Source: Candidatus Woesearchaeota archaeon
GTDB taxonomy: Archaea; Nanobdellota; Nanobdellia; Woesearchaeales; DSVV01
Reading direction: 5' to 3'
DNA length: 64,000 nucleotides
Assembly: GCA_038884615.1 (NCBI GenBank)
Contig: JAWABL010000001.1
Span: 57,837 to 121,836, forward strand
The stretch's first letter is position 1. Each line of letters starts with the position of its first letter. The notes below the pieces were generated by a model, which did not search any database, had not been told where the DNA came from, and worked only from the letters and a program-made list of their open reading frames with translations. Shown in pieces: positions 18,711 through 59,849 of the stretch. The translations under genes and the position numbers were made by a program.

Positions 18711-18833
18711 GCGGGGGTAGCCAAGCGGCTAAGGCGATCGGCTGCAGCAGGTGCTGTAAAAAGCGGTATTATGAGCGTTATGCGATGAAATGAAGATACC
18801 GATTATTCGAGGGTTCAAGTCCCTCTCCCCGCT
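18711..18833 (+). tRNA. tRNA (probably Cys, anticodon GCA) with ~50-nt intron at the canonical 37/38 position
   Basis: acceptor GCGGGGG/TCCCCGC; T-arm GAGGG-UUCAAGU-CCCUC; anticodon stem AUCGG...CCGAU enclosing CUGCAG + ~50 nt; TATA GTTATAAAAAT ~30 nt upstream. Confidence 0.65.
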
Positions 18834-19257
18834 CTTTTTATAATAAATAGTAAAAGAGAAAACTATACAAATAATCCAAGACAAGAATTCTTATCCTTTG
18901 TTTTTGTCTTTAGTTGTGAAGGAATATTCTTGACCACATTAGCAATAACATGTGGTTTTAACTCTGAAAAATCTGTTAGCCTTGAATTTTTTTTACCTGC
19001 ATTGTAGGAGACCGGCATTTTGATATTCCTTTTTATTATTCTTTTTAAATATTTTCGTAGTTTAAAATATATATTAATATATTATTTAATATACTAAAAC
19101 GAAAAATATTTAAATTTATTTTATTATAATTCTGAAAATCTGAAATTATAACAAAATTTTCATATAAAAAAATTGAAATTCATATATTTTTTATGAATAT
19201 CAGAAAAAGAGAGATAAGCTACAATTTTAGCAATTAAGTCTTTAAAAAGAGGAGCAC

Positions 19258-19548
19258 ATGAAAAAATATCCTAAAATAGTTCAATGCGACAGCAGAGGAC
19301 AGATTGTTATCCCAAAAGATATACGACGGGAATTGCAAATAGATGAATGGACTGGTTTTTTTATGTATTCTATCCAAGGAGAGGGCATACTTCTAAAAAA
19401 GATAGCTGCAGAAGAACTTGCTGTACATAAAGAGATGCTACAAGAAATTAAAGACAAAGCTGCAACATTGGGCATTAAAAACGAGAATATTGATATTGCT
19501 ATAAAGAACTATAAAAAAACAAAGGAGGGCAACTTGGAAGTGTTATGA
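19258..19548 (+). CDS. AbrB/SpoVT/MazE-family swapped-hairpin DNA-binding protein
   Basis: N-terminal VQCDSRGQIVIPKDIRRELQID matches the AbrB-type looped-hinge-helix motif; 96 aa; stop overlaps start of next gene (ATGA). Confidence 0.6.
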   Translation: MKKYPKIVQCDSRGQIVIPKDIRRELQIDEWTGFFMYSIQGEGILLKKIAAEELAVHKEMLQEIKDKAATLGIKNENIDIAIKNYKKTKEGNLEVL

Positions 19549-20594
19549 GGCTCGCTTATAATAACATAGTCGGCGTACTTGTAATTATGTTGTTGTTATT
19601 GTCTATCTTAGGCCCTTATGCGGTCTATAAAAGAGCCACTGAAGTATTAAGATATCCTACAGTCACCGGAAAGGCATCTTCAATAGGCTCTATAGGCATC
19701 CATATAGTACTTCCACCGCCTGACATGAACTCACTAAACCTGACCGCTGTTCTGGCAGAGGACAACAAAAGCATAATTTTGTTATGGAACTCTGTTTCTG
19801 CCAACAACTACAGTATCTATATCACAGATGATATTGTCTCTGGGTTTGACTATGCTAATCCGAACATCACAGGACTTACAGCAACAAACTGGACTGATGT
19901 AAACGCAAGTCAGGCGCAGCAAAGATACTACAAAGTTGGTGTGTGGAACAGCGGGCTAGAGTATGTGAGCAATGAAACCGCTGGAAAGTATGATATTGAG
20001 ATAAAATTTGCCAACGGAAACCCGGCAGGCTACGAACTTAACCAGATAAGTCTTCCGCTTATGCCAGCAAATCTGTCTTTTTCAAACATAGTGAGGGGTG
20101 GAAGTGACGGAGACATGGTGTTGCGGTTCAACAGAACGGATTTAGGGCCGAATTTTGTCGGCTGGGAAACAAACATAAAAATTGGAGGAACTTGGATGGG
20201 CGATTTTGATGTTTTTTCTTTGCTTGAGGGTTATGTGTTTATTAATGTCCAAACCCCCTACAATTTGACTATTGCAGGAAGGGTTCCAAGTGAAGAAGTA
20301 GCTATTTCAATGCCTGCGGTCACAGGCTCACCTGCAGGGCATGAGATGATTTTGCTTGGATGGAACTCTGCCTATCCAAACTGTAACCTCTCAAATGCCT
20401 TAAATACAACAACTCCGCCTGAAACAATTGTCTGGTTCAACACAACAAATATTGGTGGACAGTACGATGGCTGGCAAACATTTATGCTAATCGGTTCGCA
20501 ATGGTTTCCTACATCTGGTTGCATGCTTCCTGGAAAAGGATATAGGTTTGTCCAGATAGGAACCCCATACACTTGGCACTATGACAGAGGTTAA
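19545..20594 (+). CDS. N-terminally anchored surface glycoprotein-like hypothetical protein
   Basis: 349 aa; N-terminal transmembrane anchor then beta-rich region with >12 N-x-S/T sequons; overlaps flanking genes. Confidence 0.45.
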   Translation: MRLAYNNIVGVLVIMLLLLSILGPYAVYKRATEVLRYPTVTGKASSIGSIGIHIVLPPPDMNSLNLTAVLAEDNKSIILLWNSVSANNYSIYITDDIVSGFDYANPNITGLTATNWTDVNASQAQQRYYKVGVWNSGLEYVSNETAGKYDIEIKFANGNPAGYELNQISLPLMPANLSFSNIVRGGSDGDMVLRFNRTDLGPNFVGWETNIKIGGTWMGDFDVFSLLEGYVFINVQTPYNLTIAGRVPSEEVAISMPAVTGSPAGHEMILLGWNSAYPNCNLSNALNTTTPPETIVWFNTTNIGGQYDGWQTFMLIGSQWFPTSGCMLPGKGYRFVQIGTPYTWHYDRG

Positions 20595-21546
20595 GATAGA
20601 ATCGGCGATTGCAGTGCTGCTGTTTTTGTTAGTTGCAACTAGCTTTGTATCAGGCTCATCTGTATGCGTGCTTACTGGTTTTGTTACTGACATAAGCGGC
20701 GCAGCTGCCGAGGAAGGCACTTCTGTTGAGATAATAAACCTTGATTTAGGAACAGTTTCAAAGACACCAACAGGAACAAATTGGCCGTATGAAAATATGT
20801 TTGTGAAGGCGATAACATGCAACTTTAATGATACGATTGTTGTTCGGACAAAGTATAACAACACACTGGCTGCTGAAAAAAGAATAGTCTACGACCACCT
20901 ACCTTACGAGGTTAACATTACTTTTCCTGTTGAGGTTTTCAAGCCAAAAGAAAGCCAAACGCTAAATGATACTTCACAGAAAAGCAAAAAAACAACAGAA
21001 AGGGAGATAAGCAAAGATGGTGGTGGAGGCAGCGGAGGAAGTAACGGACCAATAAACACAAAAGAGGACGAATGCATGTTTGGGTGCCTTTCAGATTATG
21101 TATTTCCACGAATGCTTAACGAAAGCGTCACAAATATTGTTCCGATTGACTCACAAGTAAGGCTTTATTTGCTTGGCGAGGATGCAAGAGTCTGGATGGT
21201 CATTGCAGATATAAGAAAACACTCGCAAGACTCAATAGAGATAAATTTTAGCACGCTTGATGGCAAGCTAATGCTCAAAAAAGGCGTTCCTTCAAAGCTT
21301 GACCTTGACAATGATAGCAATGATGATATAGTAATCAGGCTTGAAGACCTAGATGAGAATGACGCCTATTTGCGGTTTGACAGAATAATAGGCGGTATGA
21401 ACAGCACACCGGAAATCTCTAAACCAAAAGTGATTAACCCTCTTGAAGAAGAAAAAAAAGGTAATCTCTTGCTAATAGGAATACTTGCTGTGCTAGTGAT
21501 TGTGTTTTTAGTACAGATATATTTTGAGAAGAGGAATGATAAGTGA
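20581..21546 (+). CDS. secreted/C-terminally anchored surface protein, hypothetical
   Basis: 321 aa; signal peptide, mature N-terminus SSVCVLTGFV similar to that of the next protein (DTCVVQGWIF), Gly-rich linker GGGGSGGSNG, C-terminal transmembrane helix + basic tail. Confidence 0.45.
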   Translation: MTEVKIESAIAVLLFLLVATSFVSGSSVCVLTGFVTDISGAAAEEGTSVEIINLDLGTVSKTPTGTNWPYENMFVKAITCNFNDTIVVRTKYNNTLAAEKRIVYDHLPYEVNITFPVEVFKPKESQTLNDTSQKSKKTTEREISKDGGGGSGGSNGPINTKEDECMFGCLSDYVFPRMLNESVTNIVPIDSQVRLYLLGEDARVWMVIADIRKHSQDSIEINFSTLDGKLMLKKGVPSKLDLDNDSNDDIVIRLEDLDENDAYLRFDRIIGGMNSTPEISKPKVINPLEEEKKGNLLLIGILAVLVIVFLVQIYFEKRNDK

Positions 21547-24443
21547 TGGAAAAGGCGAACTGTTTTTTGGTGGTTGTGCTTGCCTTTTTTGCGCTAGTTA
21601 GTCTTCCAACACTTGCAGATACCTGTGTTGTTCAAGGTTGGATATTTTTGCACAACGGCTCTGCCGCACCGTTTGGAACAAACGTGACCATAACCAACCA
21701 AGGAACCAGCGAGCAAAGAACCGTGCAGACAGGCGGATGGGGCGAACAGCACTATTATTTAAGATCATTTACATGCACTCAGGGAAGCGATTATTTTACA
21801 GTGTTTTCATCCTACCTTGTTTGGAATGGCTCAAACGGCGGGCTTGCAACAGGCCTAAATCTCTATCTTAACATAACCTACAACAACATCCCTCCGATAC
21901 AAAACGCAACACTCGCCCAGCAAACGATGAACGAAGACAACACAACAGGCATAAACAACGCAATAAATCTTGACGCTTACTTTTTTGACTATGACATGCA
22001 GTCGCTAAGCTACTCTATTTATTCACAAAGCAACAACCAGCTGGTTAATGCGACGATAGATGGAAACTATGTAGACATCTCCCCTCCTGCTGCAAATCAA
22101 TCCGGCTACTCTACGGTTTGTATTAGAGCATACGATTCTGAAAACTATTCACAGCCAGGATGCTTTAACATAACAGTAACTTCTGTGCCGGATGTCCCGT
22201 CTTTTAGCTCCGCGAGCGATAACTTTTCAGGCGTATACTTATCAAACCAGACGACATTAAGGATAACAACGACGGCATTTGATGGAGATGACGAACAGGT
22301 TATACTATATGTTTGCAATACCTCATCAGTAACCCCTGCCGGCTGTACTAATGGCCAATACTGCACAAGCCAGAGCGCAACAAATCCTTCATGTACTTTC
22401 GCGACGGAAAGCGATGAGAACACGCATAGATGGTACGCTTTTATATATGACACAGCTGGCGTTATAGCTGCTAATAATTTTTCAGATACGTATACAACAG
22501 ACTCGTTCGCCCCTCTTGCTGGAAGCGTTCTTATAAACAACGGCAACGCATACTCAAACAGCTCAACAATCACTGTAAACTGGTCCGGCTATAGCGACTC
22601 TATGTCTGGAATAAGATATTATTATTACAACACAACGAACAACCAATATACAAGGAATGGTGTTCAGACAAGCAACACCACTTATTCTGCATCTGTAGCT
22701 GTTGGCGAGGGAAACATATTAATTTATGTGTGGGCGGAGGATTTTGTCGGACACATCGGCGCTTCTGCAAGCGACAACATCATAGTGGACTCGCTCGCGC
22801 CCACAATAACATCTAGAAGCCAGAGTCCTGCAGACATAACAGAGGCAAGCAGCACGACAGTCTATGTAAACTATACAATCACAGACACAACACTTCAGGG
22901 AAATCCGATTTATAGATACAAGGTAGGAAGCGAAAACTACACAACCTGGCAGAACATGACCTCGCTAGGGGGAAACATATACAGATTCTCAATAACCGCT
23001 ACATGGGCATCGTATGTAAACCAAAATCTGACATACGAGGTTAGCGCAATTGACTATTTCAATAGGACCACAAATACATCTTATACAGAAGTAATAAACA
23101 TAAGTAATTATGCACCAATGTTTGTAAACCTCACTAACCTTTCAGGTTCTCAGGGCTCAAACATCTCATTTACTATTTTCGGTTCAGACTCAAATTCAAA
23201 CGACAACCTCACTTTCACGGCAAGTTGCTGTTTCACAATAACATCCCTAGACTCGCGTTCCGCCAGGGCATGGTGGGTGCCGCCCAATGAATATGTAGGG
23301 CAAAATACAATAACCCTCACAGTAAGTGATGGTATTGCCAACATCTCACAGGCGATAATCGTCACAGTGAACCCGGTAAATGACGCGCCGGTGTTATCAC
23401 CAATTGGAAATCTTTATGGCTATGTCGGCCAGCCGTTCTTTTATTATATATATGCAACCGACCCAGACAACGAAAATAGTTATCTGCTTGACGATAACAA
23501 TCTTCTCTTCGGAGCGAACGGAAACACAACATGGATAAGCGTAAGTACACTGTATAATTCAACGAACAGGTCATATTATGGTGTTTTAAACTTCACTCCT
23601 CTATCTTCTCAGATAGGTTATTTTTTCCTTAGGTTTTATGTCACAGATGGAGACCTTGTTGACGAAGAAAACTCCACACTTTATATAGGGTACTGTGGAG
23701 ATGTTGACGCCGCAAACCAGCCAAGGTGCGACTCTGATTATGAATCATGCTCAACATGCCCTGAAGACTGTGGTTCGTGTGGAACAACTTCGAGCGGCTT
23801 GCGCATGGTGATAATGGTCAAACCTAGGAACTGCCTCAATGAAAATTTTACTATGCGAACATACGAACTTTGGACAAGAGCAACTTGCGATGTGATGGGA
23901 ACCATTGTTGAGGGCTATGAAGTGTGTGGGAATCTAAGTGGCGTTTCAATTAAGGTTTACAGACTTGAGGCTGGTGAGTGGGAAGAGATTGAAGAGTATG
24001 AGACTGACGAGAATGGCGAAGCAACATTTATTCCGACGCTTGAGGGTGAGTATAAACTAATTGGAACAAAACGAAATTATCCGACAACGACTAGATACCT
24101 TGAGATATGGTCGTGCCTTAGCGACGAGGAAAAAAAGGCGCAGAATGCAACAGAAGAGTCGGTGCCGCAAAAGTTGCCTCAAAAAGAGCAGCCGAAACGC
24201 GAGGCTGAAGAAGAGCCCGTGGTATTGGAAGAAGAAAACAAGTACGGTGCGATTATGGCTTATGTCGTGGCTCCAGCAATTCTTATAATAGCTGTTGTGC
24301 TTGGCTACTACTATTATGATAGGGAAAAAGACAACAAAGTATGGATACTGAAGTGCAGGGTTTTTGCCCTACAAACCAGAAAAAAATTACAATCGTCGAT
24401 AAAAAGATACTGGAAAAAAATAAAGGATTATTTGGGTTATTAA
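21543..24443 (+). CDS. large cell-surface adhesin-like protein with cadherin-like repeat(s)
   Basis: 966 aa; signal peptide; dozens of N-glycosylation sequons; VNPVNDAPVLSP motif typical of bacterial/archaeal cadherin-like domains; acidic linker and C-terminal transmembrane anchor (YVVAPAILIIAVVLGYYYY). Confidence 0.5.
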   Translation: MMEKANCFLVVVLAFFALVSLPTLADTCVVQGWIFLHNGSAAPFGTNVTITNQGTSEQRTVQTGGWGEQHYYLRSFTCTQGSDYFTVFSSYLVWNGSNGGLATGLNLYLNITYNNIPPIQNATLAQQTMNEDNTTGINNAINLDAYFFDYDMQSLSYSIYSQSNNQLVNATIDGNYVDISPPAANQSGYSTVCIRAYDSENYSQPGCFNITVTSVPDVPSFSSASDNFSGVYLSNQTTLRITTTAFDGDDEQVILYVCNTSSVTPAGCTNGQYCTSQSATNPSCTFATESDENTHRWYAFIYDTAGVIAANNFSDTYTTDSFAPLAGSVLINNGNAYSNSSTITVNWSGYSDSMSGIRYYYYNTTNNQYTRNGVQTSNTTYSASVAVGEGNILIYVWAEDFVGHIGASASDNIIVDSLAPTITSRSQSPADITEASSTTVYVNYTITDTTLQGNPIYRYKVGSENYTTWQNMTSLGGNIYRFSITATWASYVNQNLTYEVSAIDYFNRTTNTSYTEVINISNYAPMFVNLTNLSGSQGSNISFTIFGSDSNSNDNLTFTASCCFTITSLDSRSARAWWVPPNEYVGQNTITLTVSDGIANISQAIIVTVNPVNDAPVLSPIGNLYGYVGQPFFYYIYATDPDNENSYLLDDNNLLFGANGNTTWISVSTLYNSTNRSYYGVLNFTPLSSQIGYFFLRFYVTDGDLVDEENSTLYIGYCGDVDAANQPRCDSDYESCSTCPEDCGSCGTTSSGLRMVIMVKPRNCLNENFTMRTYELWTRATCDVMGTIVEGYEVCGNLSGVSIKVYRLEAGEWEEIEEYETDENGEATFIPTLEGEYKLIGTKRNYPTTTRYLEIWSCLSDEEKKAQNATEESVPQKLPQKEQPKREAEEEPVVLEEENKYGAIMAYVVAPAILIIAVVLGYYYYDREKDNKVWILKCRVFALQTRKKLQSSIKRYWKKIKDYLGY

Positions 24444-24444
24444 G

Positions 24445-25170
24445 ATGAAGATGCTTGTTGGATGGGATGGAAGAAAATTTTTTTTTAGTGGCAAAGACAT
24501 CCACACAAAGAATGGTTTTATCAGGAAGGAAGAAATTGAGGCGGCGCGAGAAGGAAGCATTTTAAAGACTAACATTGGTCATGAGATGTTTGTTGTTGAA
24601 GCATCGTTTGTTGATGTATTCAAAAGGATAAAAAGGTCGCCACAGATAATTCCGCTGAAAGATATAGGGCTCATAGTTGCAGAGACGGGCATAGGCAAAA
24701 AAAGCGTTGTTCTTGATGCAGGTAGCGGAAGCGGAGCGACTGCGTGTTTTATAGCAAACATAGCAAAAAAAGTTTATACTTACGAAATAAGAGACGATTT
24801 TTATAAAATAGTCAAGGAAAACATCGCGCGATTAGAATTAAAAAATGTTGTTGCAAAAAAAGGGGATGTTTACAAAAAGATAAACGAAAAAAATATTGAT
24901 GTTATAATTCTTGATCTTCCATCTCCTTGGGAGGCAATTGAAACCTGCAAAAAATCACTTAAGATAGGTGGGTTTCTTGTTAGCTATTCTCCTACGGTTC
25001 CACAAGTGGCGGATTTTGTTTCGGCGATCAAAAGTAATAGCTCATTCATATTTCTAAGAACTATTGAGGTTATTGAAAGGGACTGGGAGTATGAAGGAAG
25101 AAAAATAAGACCGAAATCTCAGCAAATAGGACATAGCGGTTTTTTAACATTCTGCAGAAAGATACATTGA
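24445..25170 (+). CDS. trmI: tRNA (adenine57/58-N1)-methyltransferase TrmI
   Basis: 241 aa; SAM-binding LDAGSGSG and DLPSPW catalytic motif of the TrmI/Gcd14 family. Confidence 0.7.
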   Translation: MKMLVGWDGRKFFFSGKDIHTKNGFIRKEEIEAAREGSILKTNIGHEMFVVEASFVDVFKRIKRSPQIIPLKDIGLIVAETGIGKKSVVLDAGSGSGATACFIANIAKKVYTYEIRDDFYKIVKENIARLELKNVVAKKGDVYKKINEKNIDVIILDLPSPWEAIETCKKSLKIGGFLVSYSPTVPQVADFVSAIKSNSSFIFLRTIEVIERDWEYEGRKIRPKSQQIGHSGFLTFCRKIH

Positions 25171-25210: not shown

Positions 25211-25555
25211 TTGTCTTACCATACGAATATGCCATTTACAAAGTCATTCCCTAAAACTTCTGACAAAAGCTTCTATCCTAGATGGGAGGAGGTAACCCTT
25301 AGCGAACATGAAGAAAAACTAGTGGAGGAACAATCACGGCGTGAAAACCTTGAGCTTATGGAAGAGTGTCTTGAAGATGCAAAACATATACTGCATCATG
25401 CTAAACTTAAAGAGCAACAGTCGGATCTCGTTGGGATAGCTATCGCCCTATTTGAAAAGCGTGCGTCGCACACGATCTTCAAAAAAGAAGAGAAAGCAAA
25501 GGAAAAATTCAATTCTGCCAAAAATGAGCAGGCTAAAGAAACTAGTAAATCTTAA
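25211..25555 (+). CDS. hypothetical acidic coiled-coil protein
   Basis: 114 aa ORF, no recognisable domain. Confidence 0.3.
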   Translation: MSYHTNMPFTKSFPKTSDKSFYPRWEEVTLSEHEEKLVEEQSRRENLELMEECLEDAKHILHHAKLKEQQSDLVGIAIALFEKRASHTIFKKEEKAKEKFNSAKNEQAKETSKS

Positions 25556-26330
25556 GAAGTTTTCTTAGCCCCATGCTAAAAATAATAGATAATATGATGT
25601 ATGTTGCAAGCCAACCTGGCTGCCATCCAAATATAATAAGTCCGCCGAACGGATGTAGCTTTTCATTACCAATTGTTATGCTTTTTAGTTTTGAATCTTT
25701 ACTAAGCCCAAGCTCAATATTTGTAAGTGTCGGCTTTTCATAAAGCTTATCCTTATTATTACTGTTCACGCGAAGCGGCTGAGAAAGCTCTCTTCCTTCA
25801 AAGTTGTACTTAAGCTCATATGTCCCTGCCTGTGCCTTTGCGAGCCATTCTATCTTTCCATCTGTTGAGTTTTGCTTTGCAGGACTTTGTAGCAAGACAC
25901 CTTCCGATGCAATAAGTTCAATCTCACCGTTTTTGTCCTTTGCAAACTCAGCAGTTATTGTAAACTGCTTTTCGGCAGTTATTGGTTGATATGTAAAATG
26001 CGCATTCAGCCAACTGAAGATAAGCACAATTGGAATAAGAGTTATAAGAGTTGGCTTTATTGTGTGGCTCATATATTTTAAGTTTGCTTCCATCGCTTTT
26101 TTTTGTATCTTAAGAAGTTTTTCTGGATTATCTCTATTTTTTTTCATCTCTGTTTGATAACCCTTTATCTCTTCCTTAAGACTTTTTAGCATGGACTGAT
26201 CTGTAAACTTCATATAAACTAGCGTGATAATCAATGTTATTACAAAAGAGATGATAAGAATAGCGACAAAACTCGGCAGACTTAACAGGGGCATAAAAAG
26301 AGGATCAAATATAAAATCAAGAAAAGCCAT
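25542..26330 (-). CDS. DUF106/Oxa1-superfamily (archaeal YidC-like) membrane protein with extra C-terminal domain
   Basis: 262 aa; TM1 - Lys/Glu coiled-coil - TM2 architecture like MJ0480-type DUF106, at the conserved position downstream of secY; additional ~120-aa beta-rich domain and final transmembrane helix. Confidence 0.5.
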   Translation of the reverse strand: MAFLDFIFDPLFMPLLSLPSFVAILIISFVITLIITLVYMKFTDQSMLKSLKEEIKGYQTEMKKNRDNPEKLLKIQKKAMEANLKYMSHTIKPTLITLIPIVLIFSWLNAHFTYQPITAEKQFTITAEFAKDKNGEIELIASEGVLLQSPAKQNSTDGKIEWLAKAQAGTYELKYNFEGRELSQPLRVNSNNKDKLYEKPTLTNIELGLSKDSKLKSITIGNEKLHPFGGLIIFGWQPGWLATYIILSIIFSMGLRKLLKIY

Positions 26331-27745
26331 TACTCCATCATCCTCCTAAGCCCTGGATACATGTCCATCATGTGCTTTTGTGCAATTTCTTCATAAAGCC
26401 GGTATACAATCATAACTGAAAGAAGAATCCCTGTGCCATGGCTAAGCGCACCCGAAAGGTCTGCAACAGCTGCAAGAAATCCTATAACTATTGCACCCAT
26501 AATTGTCAAGGGTCCTATGTACCTGTCAAGCACGCGCTCAAGTATTCTTTCATCTTTTCTGAAGCCAGGAATTTGAAGGCCGCTGCTCATAATATTCCTA
26601 GCCTGTGTTTTTGCATCCATCCCTGCTGTTTGTACCCAAAAGTATGAAAATAAAACCGCCCCACCGATCATAAGAAGGACATACACTATAGCATGAAAAT
26701 AAGGCTTAAAACCAATAGCAAACCCCCCCTGCTGAATAATCATTTCAACAAGCCGTGGTGGAGTTATATAGCTTACAAGTCCGGATGCCGCACCGCTTGA
26801 GTCGTATGTTCCAAGTAGCGGATGCCCCCAATTCTGCAAAAGTCTTGCCCAGAGCTGCATGTTCGCGAAAAGTGCCGCGACAAGAATAACTGGTATGTTG
26901 CTTGTATAGATAAATTGAAGGGGCCATCTTACGCCATAACCCCTAATCCTGCCAAATGAAAGTGGTATCTCAACTTTCATAGACTGCGCATACACTGCAA
27001 TCACAAAAACTAGTATGGTGGAAACAATGGCTGCAAAAGCAAGCCCTGCGGTTGTAGGGTCGCCTGCTGCAAGCGATTGAAAAAGCTGAATAACTTTACC
27101 TGTTGAGTATGAAATTCCGCCGGCCTCACCACCAGGACCCTTAAGCCATGAAAATGCGCGAATGAATATCTCTTGGGAAACGCCCGCGACTATAAAAAGG
27201 CTAATGCCCGAGCCAAAACCCCATTTGCTTACAACCTCGTCCATAAATAAAATAAGTATTCCCCCCAAAACAAGCTGTAAAACGATGATAAGCTCTAGCT
27301 GAAAGAACAAAGATGTCCCGCGAAGTGTAGCATCTGGAGCAAGCCCGCCCATAAAAACATAAATTGCCGCTTCAAAAATAATGAAAAAAAATGCTAGAAG
27401 TTTTTGTGTCCCTTGAAAATATTTTTTTCCTTCTTGTGTTGTAAGATCAAACTTCACAAGTCCGCTACCGTTCAATAGTTGTAGAACAATTGATGCTGTG
27501 ACTATCGGACCGATACCAAGCGAAATCAGAGAACCAAACTTCGCACCTAATATAAGGGACAAATATTCAAACTGTTGAAGCGCGTTTTGCCCTAACCCAA
27601 ACAGCGGAATAAGGCCTAAAACAAAAAATAGGACAAGGGTAATTGCAGTCCACTTAAGCTTATCCTTAAATGAGAGTCGCTTCTGTGTTGGTCCTGCAAC
27701 TTCAGGCAGATTAAGCAGGATATCCTTAAATACTGCCATACTCAC
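26330..27745 (-). CDS. secY: preprotein translocase subunit SecY
   Basis: 471 aa, 10-TM SecY architecture, directly downstream of rpl15. Confidence 0.9.
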   Translation of the reverse strand: MSMAVFKDILLNLPEVAGPTQKRLSFKDKLKWTAITLVLFFVLGLIPLFGLGQNALQQFEYLSLILGAKFGSLISLGIGPIVTASIVLQLLNGSGLVKFDLTTQEGKKYFQGTQKLLAFFFIIFEAAIYVFMGGLAPDATLRGTSLFFQLELIIVLQLVLGGILILFMDEVVSKWGFGSGISLFIVAGVSQEIFIRAFSWLKGPGGEAGGISYSTGKVIQLFQSLAAGDPTTAGLAFAAIVSTILVFVIAVYAQSMKVEIPLSFGRIRGYGVRWPLQFIYTSNIPVILVAALFANMQLWARLLQNWGHPLLGTYDSSGAASGLVSYITPPRLVEMIIQQGGFAIGFKPYFHAIVYVLLMIGGAVLFSYFWVQTAGMDAKTQARNIMSSGLQIPGFRKDERILERVLDRYIGPLTIMGAIVIGFLAAVADLSGALSHGTGILLSVMIVYRLYEEIAQKHMMDMYPGLRRMME

Positions 27746-45610: not shown

Positions 45611-46185
45611 TGTATTGCGATATTGTGTTTCCAAAAAATAATGAACGCGAGTTTCTGCAAGTTGCGAGGTTTTTAGGTTATGAAAAACTAGTCTTTGTAT
45701 ACGAAACTGCGCCAATCAATATTCCAAAAGAGAATGGTGCCGTGGTGGTTTTTGGTGCATCTACAAAGCAAAAGCCAAAATGGGCGGAATACCTAATTCT
45801 GGAATCTACTGGAGACGACAGAAAAACGATTGAAACTCTGCGTCCGGAGATAATATATGGTTTTGAAACAAAAAATACCAAGGACGGCCTGCATTATAGA
45901 AATTCTGGCTTAAACCATGTTCTTTGCGCCCTTATGAGAGAGAATAATGTGGCTTGCGGGTTTTCACTTAGCGCATTGATAAACCACAAAAATAGGCAGG
46001 TTTTGCTTGGAAGGATGAAACAAAATATAAGACTCTGCAGAAAGTTCGGAGTGAAGCAGGTAATAGCAAGTTTTAGCGACGAGCCTATGGCAATGCGTGC
46101 GCCACGCGACATTATTAGCCTTTTTGTGTGTTTAGGTATGGAAAGCGGCGAAATAAAAAATGCGTTAAGATGCTTTCAAAAATGA
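45610..46185 (+). CDS. rnp3: RNase P protein component 3 (Rpp30)
   Basis: 191 aa; GLNHVLCALM..NVACGFSL and APRDIISL...LGME motifs match archaeal Rpp30 (e.g. Pyrococcus PH1877); TAATG overlap with ttuA. Confidence 0.65.
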   Translation: MYCDIVFPKNNEREFLQVARFLGYEKLVFVYETAPINIPKENGAVVVFGASTKQKPKWAEYLILESTGDDRKTIETLRPEIIYGFETKNTKDGLHYRNSGLNHVLCALMRENNVACGFSLSALINHKNRQVLLGRMKQNIRLCRKFGVKQVIASFSDEPMAMRAPRDIISLFVCLGMESGEIKNALRCFQK

Positions 46186-47924
46186 TAGATGTCGGATTTT
46201 CTTTTATCAACACCGGAAAAGAGTGTAACAATAGATGCTGGTCGTGCGCCCCGTTGCAAACCAAAAAAACTAAAGGTCATAATATTATAATAGGCGGTGG
46301 AGAGCCACTGCTAAAAAAGAAGGTTTGTGACACTTCAAAGCTAATAGATTTTTTTTTGCCTAAAAACAGAAAAAAACAGGTGATAGATAAACAAAGAAGA
46401 ATTTGGGTGCTTACAAACGGTCGTCTTATTACAAAAATAAAATCCGGTGCTTTAAAGGACCCCTATTTAGGTTTTATTGTAAAGCTTTTAGCGCATAAAC
46501 CAGAACTTCATGACCTACTTTCCTGCGTTGAGGGTAGCTTTGAGGAAACAGTAAAGGGGATAATACACCTAAAAAAGAAAAAGGTACCTTTTGGCATTTT
46601 ATTTACAATTGTTGACCAGAACTATGTACACTTAAGCAGAATGGTTGCGTTTGCCGAAAAACTTGGCCCTGCATTTATAATACTAAAGTATGCCGAGACC
46701 GGTCGCGTTTTTGAAAAAACTGCTCCTAAATATTCTCACGCCATAGAAGAGATAAGGAAGGCGCTTGCAAGCAAGACTTATGTGCTGGTAGCAGGCGTGC
46801 CTCCTTGCATGCTCAAAGAAGATAAGGACCACTGGCTCTGGTGGCCGGAACAAAGAACAAAACTATCTTATTGTAAACTATGCAGTGAATCAGATGGCGC
46901 GTGCGATGGAGTGTCTAGAGACTACCTTAAGGTCTATGGCGAAGAAGAGTTTAAAACCACGCTGGCAAGCGAACTGAAGTTTGAAGTTACTGGCGCCTGC
47001 AACATGTCCTGTGAGTTCTGTTTTAGAAAACAGCTTAATAGAATCGGGGCAAACACAAAGGAGCTATCATTTGTAGAAAAATGCCGAATAATTGACTCTG
47101 CGGCAGAGTATGTAAAAAGTATTAGGTTCACTGGCGGCGAGCCTCTTCTTTACAATCGCCTTTTTGAGCTTGCAAGATATGCAAAAGACAAAAACCCAAA
47201 TTTATACTTGAAATTAAATACCAATGGAATTCTTTTGGGTGATTTTACTGATGAAATTAAAAAACATTTTGACGAAGTAATTATTTCATTTCATGAACTT
47301 ATACCAAAAAAAGACCCCGCACTTTTTGAAACCCGGCTAAACGGAATTAAGATTCTAAAAGAGCTTGGAGTGACAGTAAGAATAAATACACTTGCGACTA
47401 AAGAGAATATCGCGAGATTTGATAAATTCTCTCTTCTAACAAACGAATGCATGAGCGACGAATGGCAATGGATTATTCCTGAGCCGTGCGATGAAAAAAG
47501 AAGAATAGATAAGCGGGATCTTATTAAGCTTGTTAATAGAATAACAAAATATGATGGTGCGGTTCCTGTCTGCTTGACACAAGCAATAGAATTCTGTTAC
47601 TATGGCAAGCCCGCAGAAGTAAAGAAAGCGTATATAAACGGGAAAAATCATTGCGGACCGCAAAGTTCGCTTTTTGTTGATTCGTGTGGCAATTACCGTT
47701 TATGCTATGCAGGCCCAGTGTTTGGAAACGCCCTTCAAATGAAGTTTAAGGACGCTTGGAACCACGATATGCTAAAAGCACTGCGCACGGGTGTGTTTTA
47801 CCCAAAAAAGTGTATAGGGTGTGCGTATATATATGATTGTCGCGGTGGTTGTAGCTTATTACTAATGAAAAAGGTGGGTGTGTGGAAAGAAAAAATAACC
47901 AGAAAAAAGAGAAGATTTTGCTGA
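46182..47924 (+). CDS. tandem double radical-SAM protein with C-terminal SPASM-like Cys-rich domain
   Basis: two CxxxCxxC cores (CNNRCWSC and CNMSCEFC), each followed by GGEPLL; C-terminal Cys cluster (CGPQ...CGNYRLC...CIGC...C); ATGA overlap with rnp3. Confidence 0.7.
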   Translation: MIDVGFSFINTGKECNNRCWSCAPLQTKKTKGHNIIIGGGEPLLKKKVCDTSKLIDFFLPKNRKKQVIDKQRRIWVLTNGRLITKIKSGALKDPYLGFIVKLLAHKPELHDLLSCVEGSFEETVKGIIHLKKKKVPFGILFTIVDQNYVHLSRMVAFAEKLGPAFIILKYAETGRVFEKTAPKYSHAIEEIRKALASKTYVLVAGVPPCMLKEDKDHWLWWPEQRTKLSYCKLCSESDGACDGVSRDYLKVYGEEEFKTTLASELKFEVTGACNMSCEFCFRKQLNRIGANTKELSFVEKCRIIDSAAEYVKSIRFTGGEPLLYNRLFELARYAKDKNPNLYLKLNTNGILLGDFTDEIKKHFDEVIISFHELIPKKDPALFETRLNGIKILKELGVTVRINTLATKENIARFDKFSLLTNECMSDEWQWIIPEPCDEKRRIDKRDLIKLVNRITKYDGAVPVCLTQAIEFCYYGKPAEVKKAYINGKNHCGPQSSLFVDSCGNYRLCYAGPVFGNALQMKFKDAWNHDMLKALRTGVFYPKKCIGCAYIYDCRGGCSLLLMKKVGVWKEKITRKKRRFC

Positions 47925-49750
47925 TTAGGCCTCCGATAATTGAAGTTTACAGCAAACATTTTTGTTGTAGAACATATAGTAAATTTGACAGGTTTTACTC
48001 CTACGCTGCACAGCCTGCTGGGCTACTTCGTGTGGCAAGCTACCTAAAAAAACAGGGGCATGAGGTTATACTTATAGACTGTCTTGCTGAAGTAGAAAAG
48101 TGCCATCCAAATTCTGTGCTTAACCGCAGGTTTTTTGATGTGCGGCGTTCTCCCGCAGGCCTTACTTTAAGAAGATACTATCACGGAATGTCTTACCAAG
48201 ATATTGAGAGGAGAATCAACGACGAAAAACCAGATAGGATAATGATAGGCACCAGCATGACATACTACTATGAAACGGTACATGAAATAGTAAAGATAGC
48301 AAAAAGGGTCTGCCCTCATACGCCGGTTGTTCTCGGCGGACTTTATGCAACACTTTGTTCTGAGCATGCAAAGAAAAGCGGTGCAGATATTGTATACTCC
48401 GGTGAGTTGCCAGAAGCAAACAACATCTGGACAGATTTGACACTTCTATCCTACAAACCAAAATATGCAATAATAAAATCAACGCGCGGCTGTCCTAACA
48501 ACTGTACATATTGTGTGGTTCCAAAACTTGAAGGCCACACGATGCGTTTCCGTTGCCCCTCAGATGTGGTTGAGGAGATTAAGGATAAGATTAAAAAGCA
48601 CAAGATTAGAAAATTTATATTTTGGGAGTCTAATCTGCTTATGAAAAGCAGGGAACATTTTGAAAAAATCCTGGATATTATAATATCTGAAAAAATAAAA
48701 GTGGAACTACATACACCAGAAGGTCTCCAACCGAACCTTCTTAATGAACCGCTTGCAAGAAAGATGAGGCTTGCTGGCTTTAAATATGTTTCCTTGCCTC
48801 TTGAAACAAGCGATGACAGATATAACAAAACGCTCAATAGAAGAACAAAAACTAAAGATTTTGATAATGCGGTGAGTGTGCTTCTAAGATCTGGGTTTTC
48901 GCCTAAAGACATTACTGTTTTTGTCCTTGCTGGACTACCTGAACAGGACATAGAAAATGTTGTAGACTCGGTTCTGAAGGCGTTTGAACATGGTTGCCGA
49001 CTTAGCATTATGCCCTTTACTCCGATTCCTGGCTCAGAGGAGTTCTCTAAACATAGAGATGTCTTTGAGACAATACGCCTTGAGGACATGCATCCATTGA
49101 TGTTTTCTGCAGTAAAAGACAAGGAAAAAGCAAGAGACTTGCTTGCAATATGCGAGCTGCATCATAGTTCATACTCGTTTTTACATGTTTTGTCGTGTTT
49201 GAAACATCGCCCCCACGTTCTACGGCTATTTATAAAGAAAATAAAAGAAAATAAAATCTTGCTTGAAAAAACATGCAGAGAGCTTGGACACAAGAGGAGT
49301 GCAAGGGCTTTGCTTGAGATAGACTGGATAGACTGGTTTCCAAAAAAAGACGAAGTAAGTACGGGGCATTCGCAAACAAATCTATATTATGAAAATAATC
49401 AAAAAAATCGCGGACTAAAGAGACTCTTGTTTGATTGGGGCACCCTTCTTTTTTTATCTACAAAAATGCACCGCCGTTTTTTTAGGCAGGTTTATAAAAT
49501 GCTTGACAGAAATGATGTTTTTGTTTTTCGTGTCTTTACAAAGTATGCTATCTATTGCGAAAAATATTTCGATGATAACCCTCTTTGTGTACTCATTGAG
49601 ACAAACAACATAAAAAAAATCAAAGATGCCGTTCAAGGGCTATTTAAAATTAAAAAAAGATACTATAAAGATTTTGTACCTGTGAAAATAGGAAACCAAA
49701 CAAAACTTGCTCCTTCTATGATTGTTTTTGTTGTTGGAAAGAGTTATTGA
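47882..49750 (+). CDS. B12-binding-domain radical-SAM protein (class B rSAM)
   Basis: N-terminal Rossmann-like B12-binding region then CPNNCTYC radical-SAM motif; 622 aa; 43-nt overlap with upstream rSAM gene. Confidence 0.7.
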   Translation: MERKNNQKKEKILLIRPPIIEVYSKHFCCRTYSKFDRFYSYAAQPAGLLRVASYLKKQGHEVILIDCLAEVEKCHPNSVLNRRFFDVRRSPAGLTLRRYYHGMSYQDIERRINDEKPDRIMIGTSMTYYYETVHEIVKIAKRVCPHTPVVLGGLYATLCSEHAKKSGADIVYSGELPEANNIWTDLTLLSYKPKYAIIKSTRGCPNNCTYCVVPKLEGHTMRFRCPSDVVEEIKDKIKKHKIRKFIFWESNLLMKSREHFEKILDIIISEKIKVELHTPEGLQPNLLNEPLARKMRLAGFKYVSLPLETSDDRYNKTLNRRTKTKDFDNAVSVLLRSGFSPKDITVFVLAGLPEQDIENVVDSVLKAFEHGCRLSIMPFTPIPGSEEFSKHRDVFETIRLEDMHPLMFSAVKDKEKARDLLAICELHHSSYSFLHVLSCLKHRPHVLRLFIKKIKENKILLEKTCRELGHKRSARALLEIDWIDWFPKKDEVSTGHSQTNLYYENNQKNRGLKRLLFDWGTLLFLSTKMHRRFFRQVYKMLDRNDVFVFRVFTKYAIYCEKYFDDNPLCVLIETNNIKKIKDAVQGLFKIKKRYYKDFVPVKIGNQTKLAPSMIVFVVGKSY

Positions 49751-49793
49751 ATTTTTGAAGAACTAAAGTTTATTAATGAAGTTTATTTCAAAA

Positions 49794-50159
49794 TTATGTG
49801 CCGCCGCCGCCGCTTGCATGGCTACTATGACTTGAATGGCTTGCATGACTGCCGTGGTTGTAATGGTGTTTGTGGCCTGCAATTGGTGCGCCGCTTCCAG
49901 AAAGGCTGTTTGAATGATCCCAACACTGTGAATGGCTTGTATCTGTTCCTTTTGCAGGACAGCATCCCGCACGCGTGTCTTTCGCAGATAGTGATACAAG
50001 AGCTGCGCCAGACAAAACACTGCCGATAGTAACTACTGCTTGCTTTGATATTTTTCCATCTTCTTCAAGCAAAAATGCCTCAACATTTTTTTTAATTTTT
50101 GGTAGCGATATGTTAGTTTTTGTTCTGCTTTTTGTATTGTGTTTTAAATTACGCCTCAT
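49794..50159 (-). CDS. small membrane-anchored Cys/His-rich protein (possible metal-binding protein or modified-peptide precursor)
   Basis: Lys-rich N-terminus, one transmembrane helix (AVVTIGSVLSGAALVSLSA), tail GCCPAKG...CWDH...GHKHHYNHGSHASHSSHSSHASGGGG; locally GC-rich; two overlapping alternative-frame ORFs exist, this frame chosen for its membrane topology and biased composition. Confidence 0.4.
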   Translation of the reverse strand: MRRNLKHNTKSRTKTNISLPKIKKNVEAFLLEEDGKISKQAVVTIGSVLSGAALVSLSAKDTRAGCCPAKGTDTSHSQCWDHSNSLSGSGAPIAGHKHHYNHGSHASHSSHSSHASGGGGT

Positions 50160-50657
50160 AATATAACAATTGTGTTCATTGTTTAAAAATTTTTTTATTA
50201 ATTTTTAGGTATAATTAAAAGAAGTAGCATTAAAAAAAACAGTATTAAAAGAATAGTAGTGGTTTGCAATTTTTAGTAGTATCACACCTCTATTTCCTGT
50301 AGAAATTTATTTCTTATGAATTTTTTATGTATATGTTTTGTGTGATCTGATTAATTTATATTTAAATGAAACAATAAAACAATGGAATTAACGAATTATT
50401 TTGTTCTGTATATTTAATTGCAAGATGCTTATATTTTGTTTCAATATTGAAAAATATTATTACATAATTATAAATTAATCAAAGATGATTATAAATAATT
50501 ATTAACTTTTATTACATTCATATAAAAAATAGTATAAAACACAGAAAACAAGAACTGATTTTAAAAACAATTTTTAAATTTTCCATGAGAAACAATGGGG
50601 TGTTGGTTGTTTTTATTTTAGTAATATTTTTAAAGCATTATTTCTTGTGGAAACTTA
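50160..50657. promoter_or_regulatory. putative chromosomal replication origin (oriC) with ORB-like repeats and AT-rich unwinding element
   Basis: ~500-bp >80% AT intergenic region directly upstream of orc1/cdc6-polD; ORB-like TTCCATGAGAAACAATGGGG (50581..50600) and mini-ORBs TTTCCTGTAGAAA (50293..50305), TTTCTTGTGGAAAC (50641..50654) resemble the archaeal TTCCAGTGGAAAC(G)...GGGG origin recognition box. Confidence 0.55.
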
Positions 50658-51863
50658 ATGGTTCAGCAAGGATTAACGCATTTTTTTGAGTCTTTTCTAA
50701 AGCAAGAACCAATTTTTAGGGAAAAGAAGGTCTTGCAGCTTAGCTACACCCCAACAGAGGTTTTTCACAGAGATGATGAGATAAAACAGCTTGCAAATAT
50801 TCTTGCGCCAGCACTTCGGCTTGAAAGACCTTCAAATATCTTTCTTTATGGTAAAACAGGAACTGGGAAAACGCTATGTGCCATTTATACAACCAATAAT
50901 ATAATCCAAGTTGCAGAAGATAAAGGCATTCCATTGCGTGTTATTTATATCAACTGCAAATTAAAGCGCGTTGCTGATACAGAATATCGACTTTTTGCAT
51001 ATATTCTTGGCGAGCTTGGGATATCTGTTCCGACGACCGGTTTGCCAACACAAGAGATTTATAGCGCATTTGAAAGTTATATTGATCAGAAAAAGCAGGT
51101 ATTTATAATTATACTTGATGAAATAGACCAACTTGTAAAGAAAGTCGGGGATAATATTATCTATAATCTTACCCGGCTCAATACACGGCTTAAAAACTGC
51201 CAGATTTCCATAGTAGGAATTTCAAACGATATACTTTTTATAGACAACATAGACCCACGGGCAAGGTCTTCTTTGAGCGAAGAAGAAATAATATTTCCAC
51301 CTTATAACGCACTCCAACTCCAGGACATTCTACGGAAAAGAGCCGAACGGGCGTTTAAGGAAAATGTGATTGAAGAGGGCGTTATAGAAAAATGTGCGGC
51401 ATATGCAGCAAGAGAACATGGAGATGCGAGACGAGCGCTCGAGCTTTTGCGTGTTGCAGGCGAGATAGCAGAGCGTTCACAGTCACAGAAAGTAAAGATT
51501 GAACATATTGATATGGCCGAGGAGAAAATTGAGAAGGACAGGGTTCTTGACATAGTTGCGCAACAACCGAAACAGCAGCAAGCGGCGCTTTACGCCATAA
51601 TCACCCTTGCACAGGGCACCCAGTCTATAATATACACTGGCGAAGTTTATGAAATATACCAAAAAATATGTAAAGATGCTGGACTTAGACCGCTCACACA
51701 ACGTAGACTTTCAGATATCTTAGGCGAGCTTGATATGCTTGGCATAATAAACGCCAAGGTCATATCAAAAGGCAGGTTTGGCAGAACACGCGAAATAAGC
51801 CTTGCAATTTCCTCAATCACAACACAAAAAATTAAAAAAATACTTGAGCAGGGCTTTGGCTGA
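50658..51863 (+). CDS. cdc6: Orc1/Cdc6 replication initiator (AAA+ ATPase + winged helix)
   Basis: Walker A YGKTGTGKT, Walker B ILDEID, sensor motifs, C-terminal winged helix. Confidence 0.9.
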   Translation: MVQQGLTHFFESFLKQEPIFREKKVLQLSYTPTEVFHRDDEIKQLANILAPALRLERPSNIFLYGKTGTGKTLCAIYTTNNIIQVAEDKGIPLRVIYINCKLKRVADTEYRLFAYILGELGISVPTTGLPTQEIYSAFESYIDQKKQVFIIILDEIDQLVKKVGDNIIYNLTRLNTRLKNCQISIVGISNDILFIDNIDPRARSSLSEEEIIFPPYNALQLQDILRKRAERAFKENVIEEGVIEKCAAYAAREHGDARRALELLRVAGEIAERSQSQKVKIEHIDMAEEKIEKDRVLDIVAQQPKQQQAALYAIITLAQGTQSIIYTGEVYEIYQKICKDAGLRPLTQRRLSDILGELDMLGIINAKVISKGRFGRTREISLAISSITTQKIKKILEQGFG

Positions 51864-53464: not shown

Positions 53465-53466
53465 AA

Positions 53467-58874: not shown

Positions 58875-59849
58875 TTACAAAAATTCGAGTTCGCTCTTTA
58901 GAGACTCTATCTCTTTTTTCAACTCTTCTGCTTCATTTTTTGTTGTTATGTAATTTTCAAGTTCCTTTATTATTTCAGTGCGTGTTTTTAAATCATATAT
59001 CCTAAGTGCAATTTTCGGCTCGTTTATAACTTCATCAAGCCAAATAGACACATCGTTCTTATTTTCATTGACAAGCTGGTTGAAGGTGGTGTCATCAATA
59101 TTCTGCAAAAAATAGCAGAGCTCCCGTAGACTTGTTATTTGTTTTCCTTCGGCAAAAGCTAGTCTGTTATGTAGTAGCGAAGGGGCGATGTTATGCATAG
59201 CAGATTGAACTGCCTGTTGTTCCACAGAAGACTCGTGTGCGTTCTGCACAACAACCCCTCCTTCCATGCTTTGTATATCATTTACTGGTGAGCTTCGTAC
59301 CGCAAATGTAAAGTAAACTGCGTTCCCTATAACCAGAACAAACAAGACTATTGAAGCAAGGAGAAGCCATGGTCTTTCCTTCCTCTGTTCAATAGCAGAC
59401 ACAGAAGCCACTTTCTTTTCATCAGCGGCAAATCCTGTCGGTGCAGCGAGATTTAGTTTTGCTCCAAGCCCCTGCTCTGGAACACCTTCATGCATGACGC
59501 TTATAGTAAGCGTTTCTTTTCCTTCAATTTTTTCTGGCATTTTAAGTGTAAGCGTGAAACTTTTCACAGCATCGTCTTTGCTGAACACAATCTTTTGAGG
59601 CTCAGCAACTATATATTTTGCAAGGTTGCCTGTTATATTTACTGTTACCGTAAAATCCTTCTTTTCTGTATTATAAATCCTGTAGACTACGGTTTTTTCT
59701 GTACCAGGCTCAAAGACAATATCTTTTGTAGCCGGAGTTATTCCTAGTGCATATGCGTCAATCGAGTTCAGGACAAGGGCCATTAATGCATAACAGCACA
59801 CATACACAGAATACGCCGCGCCTTGCATACATACTACTTTCTTTCGCAT
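58875..59849 (-). CDS. hypothetical bitopic membrane protein (signal peptide, beta-rich ectodomain, TM, cytoplasmic coiled coil)
   Basis: 324 aa ORF, no recognisable domain. Confidence 0.35.
   Translation of the reverse strand: MRKKVVCMQGAAYSVYVCCYALMALVLNSIDAYALGITPATKDIVFEPGTEKTVVYRIYNTEKKDFTVTVNITGNLAKYIVAEPQKIVFSKDDAVKSFTLTLKMPEKIEGKETLTISVMHEGVPEQGLGAKLNLAAPTGFAADEKKVASVSAIEQRKERPWLLLASIVLFVLVIGNAVYFTFAVRSSPVNDIQSMEGGVVVQNAHESSVEQQAVQSAMHNIAPSLLHNRLAFAEGKQITSLRELCYFLQNIDDTTFNQLVNENKNDVSIWLDEVINEPKIALRIYDLKTRTEIIKELENYITTKNEAEELKKEIESLKSELEFL

Follow-up and report, generated by a model that had tools for sequence, protein, structure and literature searches.

A putatively autoregulated operon for predicted membrane-anchored surface glycoproteins in a clade of Woesearchaeota

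DPANN archaea, the Woesearchaeota among them, are mostly uncultivated and probably live in attachment to other cells; next to nothing is known of their gene regulation or of the means by which they retain their surface proteins. Here we describe a four-gene operon, g1-g4, in a 64,000-nucleotide stretch of a Candidatus Woesearchaeota genome (contig JAWABL010000001.1; the whole stretch is referred to as the window, with positions counted from its first letter). A small gene of the AbrB/SpoVT/MazE fold is followed, with overlaps, by three genes for predicted surface glycoproteins, and is preceded by a conserved array of short repeats. An earlier note on this DNA had proposed that an AbrB-like gene is coupled to three surface-protein genes, and our analysis supports that proposal: the predicted ectodomains are of beta-sandwich type only, and no catalytic domain was found in g2-g4 with Pfam or NCBIfam. 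The genes and the elements of the control region are as follows.

18863..19018, minus strand: g0, a divergent gene of 51 aa, from the open reading frame (ORF) list and orthologous ORFs at the same position
19043..19099: upstream half of the divergent control region, a TATA-like TTTTAAATATTT and then an inverted repeat, from a seven-locus alignment and an inverted-repeat scan
19106..19115, plus strand: TATA-like box, ATATTTAAAT in the window and TTTATATA in orthologues, in ungapped register in eight loci
19131..19143: candidate operator site 1, TCTGAAAATCTGA, consensus TCTGA-N3-TCAGA, with at most one mismatch and in the same register in 9/9 loci
19178..19204: the inverted repeat of the earlier note, ATTCATA (19178-84) and TATGAAT (19192-98), which corresponds to inner pentamer 4 (TCATA, a degenerate TCAGA) plus site 2
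19192-19204: candidate operator site 2, TATGAATATCAGA, starting exactly 61 bp after site 1 in 9/9 loci
19258-19548, plus strand: g1, 96 aa, AbrB/SpoVT/MazE-fold protein
19545-20594, plus strand: g2, 349 aa, with 13 sequons
19971..20591, plus strand: the D2-D3 unit of g2, a member of a strictly C-terminal exoprotein module
20581-21546, plus strand: g3, 321 aa
21543-24443, plus strand: g4, 966 aa from a GTG, or 965 aa from the ATG at 21546
24445-25170, plus strand: g5, GCD14/TrmI-type tRNA methyltransferase (trmI; PF08704, 5e-22)

The four reading frames lie exactly where the earlier note had placed them. Genes g1 and g2 share an ATGA (a 4-nt overlap), g2 and g3 overlap by 14 nt, and g3 and g4 meet at GTGA/TGATG, with an overlap of 4 nt, or of 1 nt if g4 starts at the ATG. 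A Shine-Dalgarno-like GAGGAG (19249-19254) lies 5' of g1. The methyltransferase gene g5 begins 1 nt past the g4 stop codon and is probably co-transcribed with g1-g4, and is functionally unrelated to the surface operon.

The earlier note had suggested looking for the module in related genomes, and the order g1-g2-g3-g4 recurs in at least seven others (loci L001-3, L004/L008, L005, L006/L011, L007, L009 and L012), with differing upstream flanks. L004/L008 belongs to a complete Woesearchaeota chromosome of 1.84 Mb. Five of these loci keep the ATGA overlap between g1 and g2. In L004/L008 and L009, trmI follows g4 immediately, with a 4-nt overlap, and in L006, L007 and L001 it is 0.6-1.3 kb away. 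A metagenome scan with a g2 profile added one locus only, and two more distant loci (L010 and L014) keep the g2-g3-g4 trio without g1. We read the operon as chromosomal and vertically inherited in one Woesearchaeota clade; its window also contains an archaeal signal recognition particle RNA, an intron-containing tRNA, SecY, a ribosomal-protein block, Cdc6 and PolD. The products of g2, g3 and g4 have counterparts of 100% identity in a metagenome-assembled genome (MAG) of Candidatus Woesearchaeota. The MAGs that carry L006, L007 and L009 are labelled 'uncultured Methanosarcinales archaeon', yet these loci are syntenic with those of Woesearchaeota and their proteins 45-55% identical; the labels are probably wrong. 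No description of the operon, or of the C-terminal module of g2, was found in the literature searched.

The first gene, g1, encodes a swapped-hairpin domain (aa 7-49) followed by a C-terminal region of about 45 aa that is conserved among orthologues. It scores above the cut-off for PF04014 MazE_antitoxin/SpoVT-AbrB (25.6 bits against 24.7) and just below that for TIGR01439 AbrB (27.5 against 28.3), and it matches the N-domains of SpoVT and AbrB among PDB sequences (E 0.005-0.08). Orthologues are 55-69% identical, and PF04014 is present in every one. The protein is in register with Bacillus subtilis AbrB, including the VIPK..RR.L core, with R23 and R24 of AbrB kept, a Q at the position of R15 (R13 being adjacent) and a V at that of R8; R8, R15, R23 and R24 are the arginines that we take to contact DNA in AbrB. 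Residues 9-86, nearly the whole length, match the phage antitoxin family phrog_4681 (E 2e-6). No toxin domain (PIN, MazF and others) was found in the operon or beside g1 with Pfam, NCBIfam, PADLOC or PHROG, and g0, the upstream neighbour, is without any match in Pfam, PHROG or PADLOC.

Upstream of g1, the earlier note had described an AT-rich leader of 420 bp, but this region really holds the conserved divergent gene g0, and the intergenic spacer is 239 bp. Equivalents of g0 are present at the corresponding position in six loci (L001, L004, L006, L007, L009 and L011); orthologues are 49-57 aa long and have the motif S[FY]NA..N.[KR]LT[DE]F..[LIV]K..V..N. A 49-aa minus-strand gene is called where g0 sits in L012, L005 is without g0, and g0 has no match in Pfam, PHROG or PADLOC. 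Two direct-repeat copies had been put forward as possible operator sites: the one at 19131-19143 (TCTGAAAATCTGA) is real and conserved, and the other (TCTGAAAAATCTG, at about 18965) lies inside g0, where it encodes the conserved LTDF motif, and is no operator candidate.

We compared the leaders in an alignment of seven loci, the TATA register in eight and the operator sites in nine. In the upstream half of the region, the TATA-like TTTTAAATATTT, which would serve g0, precedes an inverted repeat with the orthologue consensus TTAGTATA-N7-TATACTAA (in the window TATATTAA/TTAATATA). In the downstream half, the TATA-like box at 19106-19115, the putative promoter of g1-g4, begins 24 bp 5' of operator site 1. 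Half-sites at +20 (TCTGA) and +49 (TCAGA) complete a 74-bp unit of two-fold symmetry with six TCWGA pentamers, and the invariant columns of the leader alignment coincide with these pentamers; L004 and L007 have additional sites at +20 and +41. The register from the TATA-like box through site 1 to site 2 is gap-free, whereas the distance from site 2 to the ATG ranges from 18 to 73 nt across loci. Outside the leaders TCTGA-N3-TCAGA is almost absent (about 200 kb of loci scanned), and in the 64-kb window TTCTGANNNTCAGAA, allowing one mismatch, matches at sites 1 and 2 only. The array is retained in L005, which is without g0, and is missing in L010 and L014, which are without g1. Because it is conserved and co-occurs with g1, we regard the 74-bp array as a strong candidate operator for g1.

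The 7-bp inverted repeat to which the earlier note drew attention is present, at 19178-19184 / 19192-19198 instead of about 19176..19205, and extends to 11-nt arms with 91% complementarity. It means little alone, because it is one of 34 inverted repeats in a spacer of 21.5% G+C. Within the window by itself the relaxed TCWGA motif is found six times against nine expected, and neither the motif nor the 7-bp repeat is clearly above chance; it is only the conservation across genomes that makes the leader array significant. A TCAGA/TCTGA pair has changed in the window to TCATA/TATGA, a symmetric mutation, and the hairpin corresponds to these two mutated pentamers. The suggestion of operator-like repeats in the leader thus survives, with the 74-bp pentamer array, and not the hairpin as such, as the candidate functional element.

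The products of g3 and g4 both have hydrophobic segments at the N- and C-terminus. In g3, a signal peptide is followed by an N-domain (aa 27-116, nt 20659-20928), the Gly linker already recognised in the earlier note (aa 156-167), a second beta domain that contains D-x-D-N-D, and a transmembrane (TM) helix near the C-terminus (aa 291-313). The protein is fast-evolving, with positional orthologues only 23-34% identical; these were taken by position and confirmed with BLAST, a word-indexed search having returned g3 alone. It has a marginal match to phrog_11583 (E 0.005). In g4, a signal peptide and an N-domain (nt 21618-21884) are followed by approximately seven domains similar to immunoglobulin (Ig), cadherin or FN3 domains. 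Beyond these lie a Cys-rich segment (aa 716-745) and a prealbumin-like domain (aa 753-855), after which an acidic stalk leads to the TM helix (nt 24240-24323). The protein ends in a conserved basic tail of 40 aa, predicted to be cytoplasmic (nt 24324-24440), with the motif YYYYD..KNN.WILKARIW...WKK.K.YLGY. The distant g4-like protein of L010, a locus without g1, has a different tail. A collection of 5.8 billion proteins yields only about 10 full-length relatives of g4, of near-constant length and 45-58% identity. Across the loci compared, g4 is about as conserved as trmI (43-58% against 51-65% identity).

A motif that the earlier note had found common to two of the proteins, C-V-x-x-G-(F/W)-(V/I), marks the start of a domain of about 90 aa shared by g3 and g4 (blastp 3.7e-10). 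This N-domain has a conserved Cys pair, and its profile finds no sequence relative in PDB. In L005 (10001-14260; GCA_054040115.1), g3 and g4 form one reading frame of 1419 aa in which the g3 TM helix is followed by KRKRGK and the g4 signal sequence, and this succession of helix, short basic loop and signal sequence is topologically consistent. The cadherin-like character claimed for g4 resides in a Big_9/cadherin-like domain (aa 522-619, nt 23109-23402) that does contain VNDAPV, although the family assignment rests on matches below the cut-offs: 21.3 against 23.6 bits for Big_9, 12.6 against 26.5 for Cadherin_5 and 35.7 against 90 for tand_rpt_95. A PDB profile search with g4 finds cadherin-23 EC1 (E 1.6e-3), and several g4 orthologues have recorded matches to PF17963, PF17803 or PF17892.

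The product of g2 differs from these in having a hydrophobic segment at its N-terminus only. A membrane helix (aa 2-36) and a linker precede an FN3 domain (approximately aa 55-140) and a duplicated pair of beta domains, D2 (143-248) and D3 (249-349). Structure prediction, which the earlier note had recommended, gives three beta-sandwich domains for g2, the first resembling FN3 domains in fold; for g4 the predicted model is poor, and Foldseek returns with it only generic Ig, cadherin, FN3 and macroglobulin arrays. The anchors proposed in the earlier note agree with the hydrophobic segments, N-terminal in g2 and C-terminal in g3 and g4. Its description of all three proteins as dense in N-x-S/T sequons is also correct for the window, where g2, g3 and g4 are the three sequon-densest ORFs, at 2-4 times the expectation from composition shuffles (13 against 4.4±1.9 in g2, 8 against 2.9±1.6 in g3, and 38 against 16.6±3.4 in g4); the excess is kept in the orthologues of g2 and g4, and not in those of g3.

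Eleven full-length relatives of g2 are known, and its FN3-D2-D3 unit, three domains in about 290 aa, is far more widespread. A full HMMER search with the g2 profile recovered 362 cluster representatives at E<=1e-3 and 139 at E<=1e-10, and in 63 of 64 full-length matches at most 5 aa separate the end of the unit from the protein C-terminus. The full-length matches fall into two groups of about equal size: g2-like proteins with an N-terminal helix and roughly 340-360 aa, and large proteins of up to 3,989 aa with N-terminal signal peptides. The carriers include S8 and C1 peptidases and beta-helix/NosD-like, LamG and FG-GAP proteins, and those that are named belong to Candidatus Woesearchaeota. 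The unit is in neither Pfam nor NCBIfam. From these architectures, the distribution appears to be that of a binding or anchoring domain.

Tandem arrangements of such carriers also occur. At L016 (5478-19796), in the archaeon MAG GCA_043814055.1, there are three to four exoprotein genes in tandem – beta-helix (1451 aa), C1 peptidase (1031 aa), S8 peptidase (1365 aa) and beta-helix (840+ aa) – each ending in a g2-like FN3-D2-D3 unit, and one or more further large exoprotein genes with this ending are present at L015 (7310-11416). In the distant loci L010 (7572-9992) and L014 (3742-6897), the g2-g3-g4 trio is preceded by conserved secreted or anchored proteins of about 195 aa (twice in L014), 386-399 aa and 120-143 aa. 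The small secreted proteins 5' of these trios have no family matches; on direct reading, the 195-aa proteins have N-termini like that of g2, a hydrophobic helix and then T-G-x-A. We also considered whether the g2 N-terminus and these small proteins might be TasA-like or pilin-like, and dropped the idea, as no family match was found.

Our preferred reading, which we give slightly better than an even chance, is that the operon is repressor-controlled and specifies a heteromeric surface glycoprotein complex, anchored in the membrane and used for adhesion or surface anchoring. Transcription would start about 25 bp past the TATA-like box, within site 1. The g1 protein, as a dimer of dimers or a higher oligomer, would bind the six-pentamer TCWGA array and occlude the start site, resulting in negative autoregulation. 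The overlapping junctions would couple translation of g1, g2, g3 and g4 and give fixed subunit ratios. In the assembled complex, g2 would be held by its N-terminal helix and g3 and g4 by their C-terminal helices, with the beta-sandwich ectodomains outside; this topology, and N-glycosylation of the proteins, are suggested by the signal and anchor segments, the conserved Cys pairs and the sequon excess. Proteins g3 and g4 would act together through their common membrane-distal N-domain, as would be in keeping with their fusion in one genome, and g2 would display the tri-domain module that otherwise ends large secreted proteases, beta-helix and lectin-like proteins of the same group. On this reading the complex most likely serves binding at the cell surface, either to fix the cell on a partner or substrate or to keep module-tagged exoproteins from leaving it. 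A bulk envelope lattice is less likely.

Several points weigh against this reading. The array could be bound by g0 or some other factor instead of g1, and AbrB-type proteins are classically weakly sequence-specific, whereas the array is sharply defined. The topology of g2 is ambiguous by the positive-inside rule, as there is a conserved KK after the helix and there are few charges before it. The AlphaFold2 model of g4 has a pLDDT of 58, and leaves the N-domain and residues 612-751 unmodelled. The g3-g4 fusion in L005 occurs in one MAG only, and could be real or an assembly or indel artefact. Finally, the conservation of g4, near that of trmI, and its near-constant length are unlike those of fast-evolving host-recognition adhesins, and fit a structural envelope role.

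That role is the substance of the alternative that survives best, although we consider it rather doubtful: the operon would encode an S-layer or main envelope system, with g4 as the lattice glycoprotein, g3 and/or g2 as an anchored stalk or tether analogous to SlaB beside SlaA, and the g2-type module as a means of docking exoproteins. The g4 features of signal peptide, Ig-like array, heavy sequon load, acidic stalk and C-terminal TM helix match archaeal S-layer glycoproteins generally. The two-component S-layers of Sulfolobales are a precedent, being encoded by adjacent, co-transcribed genes with a C-terminally anchored beta-sandwich partner (PMC5744192). The locus is moreover single-copy and syntenic, of near-constant length and with moderate divergence close to that of trmI, and a strictly C-terminal module on many exoproteins is how an envelope-docking domain would be expected to look. 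Searches in Pfam and NCBIfam and a PDB profile search with g4, however, gave no match to a described S-layer family such as S_layer_N/C, DUF1608, halobacterial csg or SlaA/SlaB (the PDB search finding cadherin-like domains only), and there is no PGF-CTERM type signal of archaeosortase substrates: NCBIfam gives no match, no PGF motif precedes the g4 TM helix, and the conserved 40-aa cytoplasmic tail follows it instead. An elaborate conserved operator with a regulator gene also contrasts with the Sulfolobales slaAB genes, described as constitutively transcribed (PMC5744192). The codon usage of g4 is unlike that of ribosomal protein genes, though the bias is weak throughout; codon adaptation (0.64 for g4, 0.62-0.74 for ribosomal genes) does not separate g2-g4 from other genes. 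The small number of full-length g4 relatives in so large a protein collection also argues against a main envelope protein. The contrary picture drawn in the earlier note, of ordinary S-layer or protease-type proteins with a separately transcribed regulator, is not what the locus presents.

A more specific proposal, which we regard as improbable but worth stating, is that the operon provides the membrane platform for surface display by a tag-and-receptor system peculiar to Woesearchaeota. In such a system the C-terminal tri-domain unit of about 290 aa would be an anchoring tag that docks on the g3/g4 N-domain or co-assembles with membrane-anchored g2, and the AbrB-type repressor would match synthesis of the platform to demand, possibly by sensing the cytoplasmic tail of g4. 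If true, archaea would have a functional counterpart to cohesin-dockerin or type IX secretion system (T9SS) C-terminal domain (CTD) anchoring that is built from unrelated domains, and surface proteomes would become predictable from DPANN genomes.

It is still less probable that g1 is an antitoxin-like adaptor whose C-terminal half binds a partner such as the g4 tail, either as its sole role or in coupling assembly of the complex to operator occupancy, much as a bound toxin modulates repression by its antitoxin. The idea draws on the nearly full-length match of g1 to phrog_4681 and its membership of the MazE antitoxin family PF04014, on the conserved C-terminal 45 aa, on the conserved ATGA coupling of g1 to the structural genes, and on the g4 tail motif, which is kept in loci with g1 and replaced by a different tail in L010. 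This co-occurrence of tail and g1 rests on very few lineages, however; no toxin-like gene is present by Pfam, NCBIfam, PHROG or PADLOC, and the symmetric operator is most simply explained by a DNA-binding g1.

Very unlikely, in our view, is the suggestion that the leader repeats are RNA hairpins in a long 5' untranslated region, acting on stability, attenuation or translation, and not a DNA operator. The pentamers are mutually complementary and hairpins can be drawn from them, the change from TCAGA/TCTGA to TCATA/TATGA in the window keeps complementarity, and a start at site 1 would put site 2 in the transcript. RNAalifold, however, yields -7.9 kcal/mol, and its covariation term is positive and therefore penalising, so that an RNA element has no covariation support: most pairs are invariant, with one G-C to U-A double change in the core and A-U flips at the AT-rich flanks. 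The sequence of the pentamers is itself conserved, beyond their pairing, their spacing is fixed to the promoter and not to the start codon, and site 1 lies at or before the expected start.

That the module is a mobile or virus-derived cassette of regulator and envelope glycoproteins inserted beside a tRNA gene is the least credible of all, the nearness of that gene (18711-18833, 30 bp beyond g0), the varying upstream flanks and the occurrence of AbrB-fold proteins and C-terminally anchored glycoproteins in archaeal viruses being outweighed by the want of PHROG matches for g0, g2 and g4 (that of g3 being marginal and that of g1 clear but to antitoxin families), of integrase or mobile-element genes among the window ORFs or the neighbouring genes of related loci, by trmI synteny kept in most genomes, by a G+C content of 0.42-0.44, similar to the remaining window, and by a single-copy locus diverging as its housekeeping neighbours do. 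Defence-system and provirus readings were likewise rejected: PADLOC gave no hits, and PHROGs gave antitoxin families for g1 and the one marginal g3 match.

Other features of the window are recorded here in their own right. The tRNA gene beyond g0 (plus strand, 123 nt) is evidently intron-bearing; it scores 47.9 bits with Rfam and was missed by ARAGORN. Where the ribosomal-protein block ends, at 25542-27745 on the minus strand, an EMC3/TMCO1-like (DUF106, YidC-type) insertase gene adjoins secY and converges on the surface operon. At 46128-49750 on the plus strand, 3' of a PP-loop ATPase gene, two large radical-SAM genes (SPASM-domain, 598 aa, and B12-binding, 622 aa) share about 40 nt and may form a cluster for the modification of a peptide or cofactor. 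The stretch that follows, 49750-50657, is the AT-richest part of the window (G+C 0.276 at 50001-51000) and lies directly 5' of cdc6/orc1 (50658-51863), after which come the genes for the small and large PolD subunits (50658-57006 block). It looks like a replication origin; a repeat scan of it gave a 17-nt inverted repeat (50348-64 / 50465-81) and a few imperfect direct repeats, and no clear set of origin recognition boxes. A 324-aa protein encoded at 58875-59849 on the minus strand has a signal sequence and a beta-rich N-domain, then a TM helix, is coiled in its C-terminal half, and is weakly similar to the 399-aa protein of the L014 cluster (tblastn 1.5e-5).

For organisms known largely from their genomes, the operon offers several points of entry. 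The phylogenetically footprinted 74-bp candidate operator, with its putative regulator, can be tested in vitro with recombinant protein, with no culture required. The putative three-protein glycoprotein complex may very well be what these cells use as contact surface or envelope, and the C-terminal module marks a set of giant exoproteins whose retention on the cell, or whose reaching a target, it could explain.

Among known systems, g1 is most readily compared with the AbrB/SpoVT/MazE proteins (PF04014), with which its N-terminal 45 aa are in register including the VIPK..RR.L core. The gene is small and the first of the unit it would control, and the repeated half-sites over about 70 bp 5' of it resemble the extended, multiple sites bound by AbrB tetramers. 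It differs in its archaeal DPANN host, in a C-terminal half unrelated to the AbrB C-domain, in the sharply defined symmetric TCWGA array with its fixed 61-bp spacing, and in being coupled to surface-protein genes; its DNA binding is a prediction. With type II antitoxins of the MazE/VapB class g1 shares size, fold, PHROG similarity, the position as first gene with a 4-nt overlap and a probable role as autorepressor. The gene that follows it, however, encodes a 349-aa membrane-anchored protein, a putative glycoprotein and not a PIN or MazF toxin, and the operon has no toxin domain.

The tri-domain unit of g2 invites comparison with the T9SS C-terminal domain, with S-layer homology (SLH) and other cell-wall-binding domains and with dockerin, being found at the extreme C-terminus of unrelated secreted proteases, beta-helix and lectin-like proteins. 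Such a distribution is expected of an anchoring or sorting tag. There is no sequence relationship to any of these, the organisms here are archaea that are without such machinery, and the unit in g2 comprises about 290 aa in three domains with a membrane helix of its own. Like the bacterial Big_9 'tandem-95 repeat' adhesins, g4 appears as a multi-domain rod, with matches of 522-619 to Big_9, tandem-95 and cadherin-23 EC1 and with the VNDAPV linker. Unlike in those adhesins, only one or two of its domains match, below the curated cut-offs; the N-domain, Cys-rich segment and tail are without named relatives, and the putative anchor is a TM helix.

The S-layer glycoprotein of Haloferax volcanii is an Ig-like array, as g4 is predicted to be. 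A glycosylated Ig-like array with a C-terminal anchor and an anchored partner, as predicted here, would also resemble archaeal S-layer systems such as the slaA-slaB pair of Sulfolobales, in which adjacent genes encode heavily N-glycosylated envelope proteins and the beta-sandwich partner has a C-terminal TM helix (PMC5744192). The Woesearchaeota proteins have no sequence or profile relationship to either; there are three of them and not two, with a putative regulator and candidate operator where slaAB is described as constitutive, and g4 has a conserved, predicted cytoplasmic tail and is without PGF-CTERM. The kind of system, a surface-glycoprotein operon with an AbrB-fold autoregulator, is a known one, and the new parts are the g2 tri-domain, the g3/g4 N-domain, g0 and the 74-bp candidate operator.

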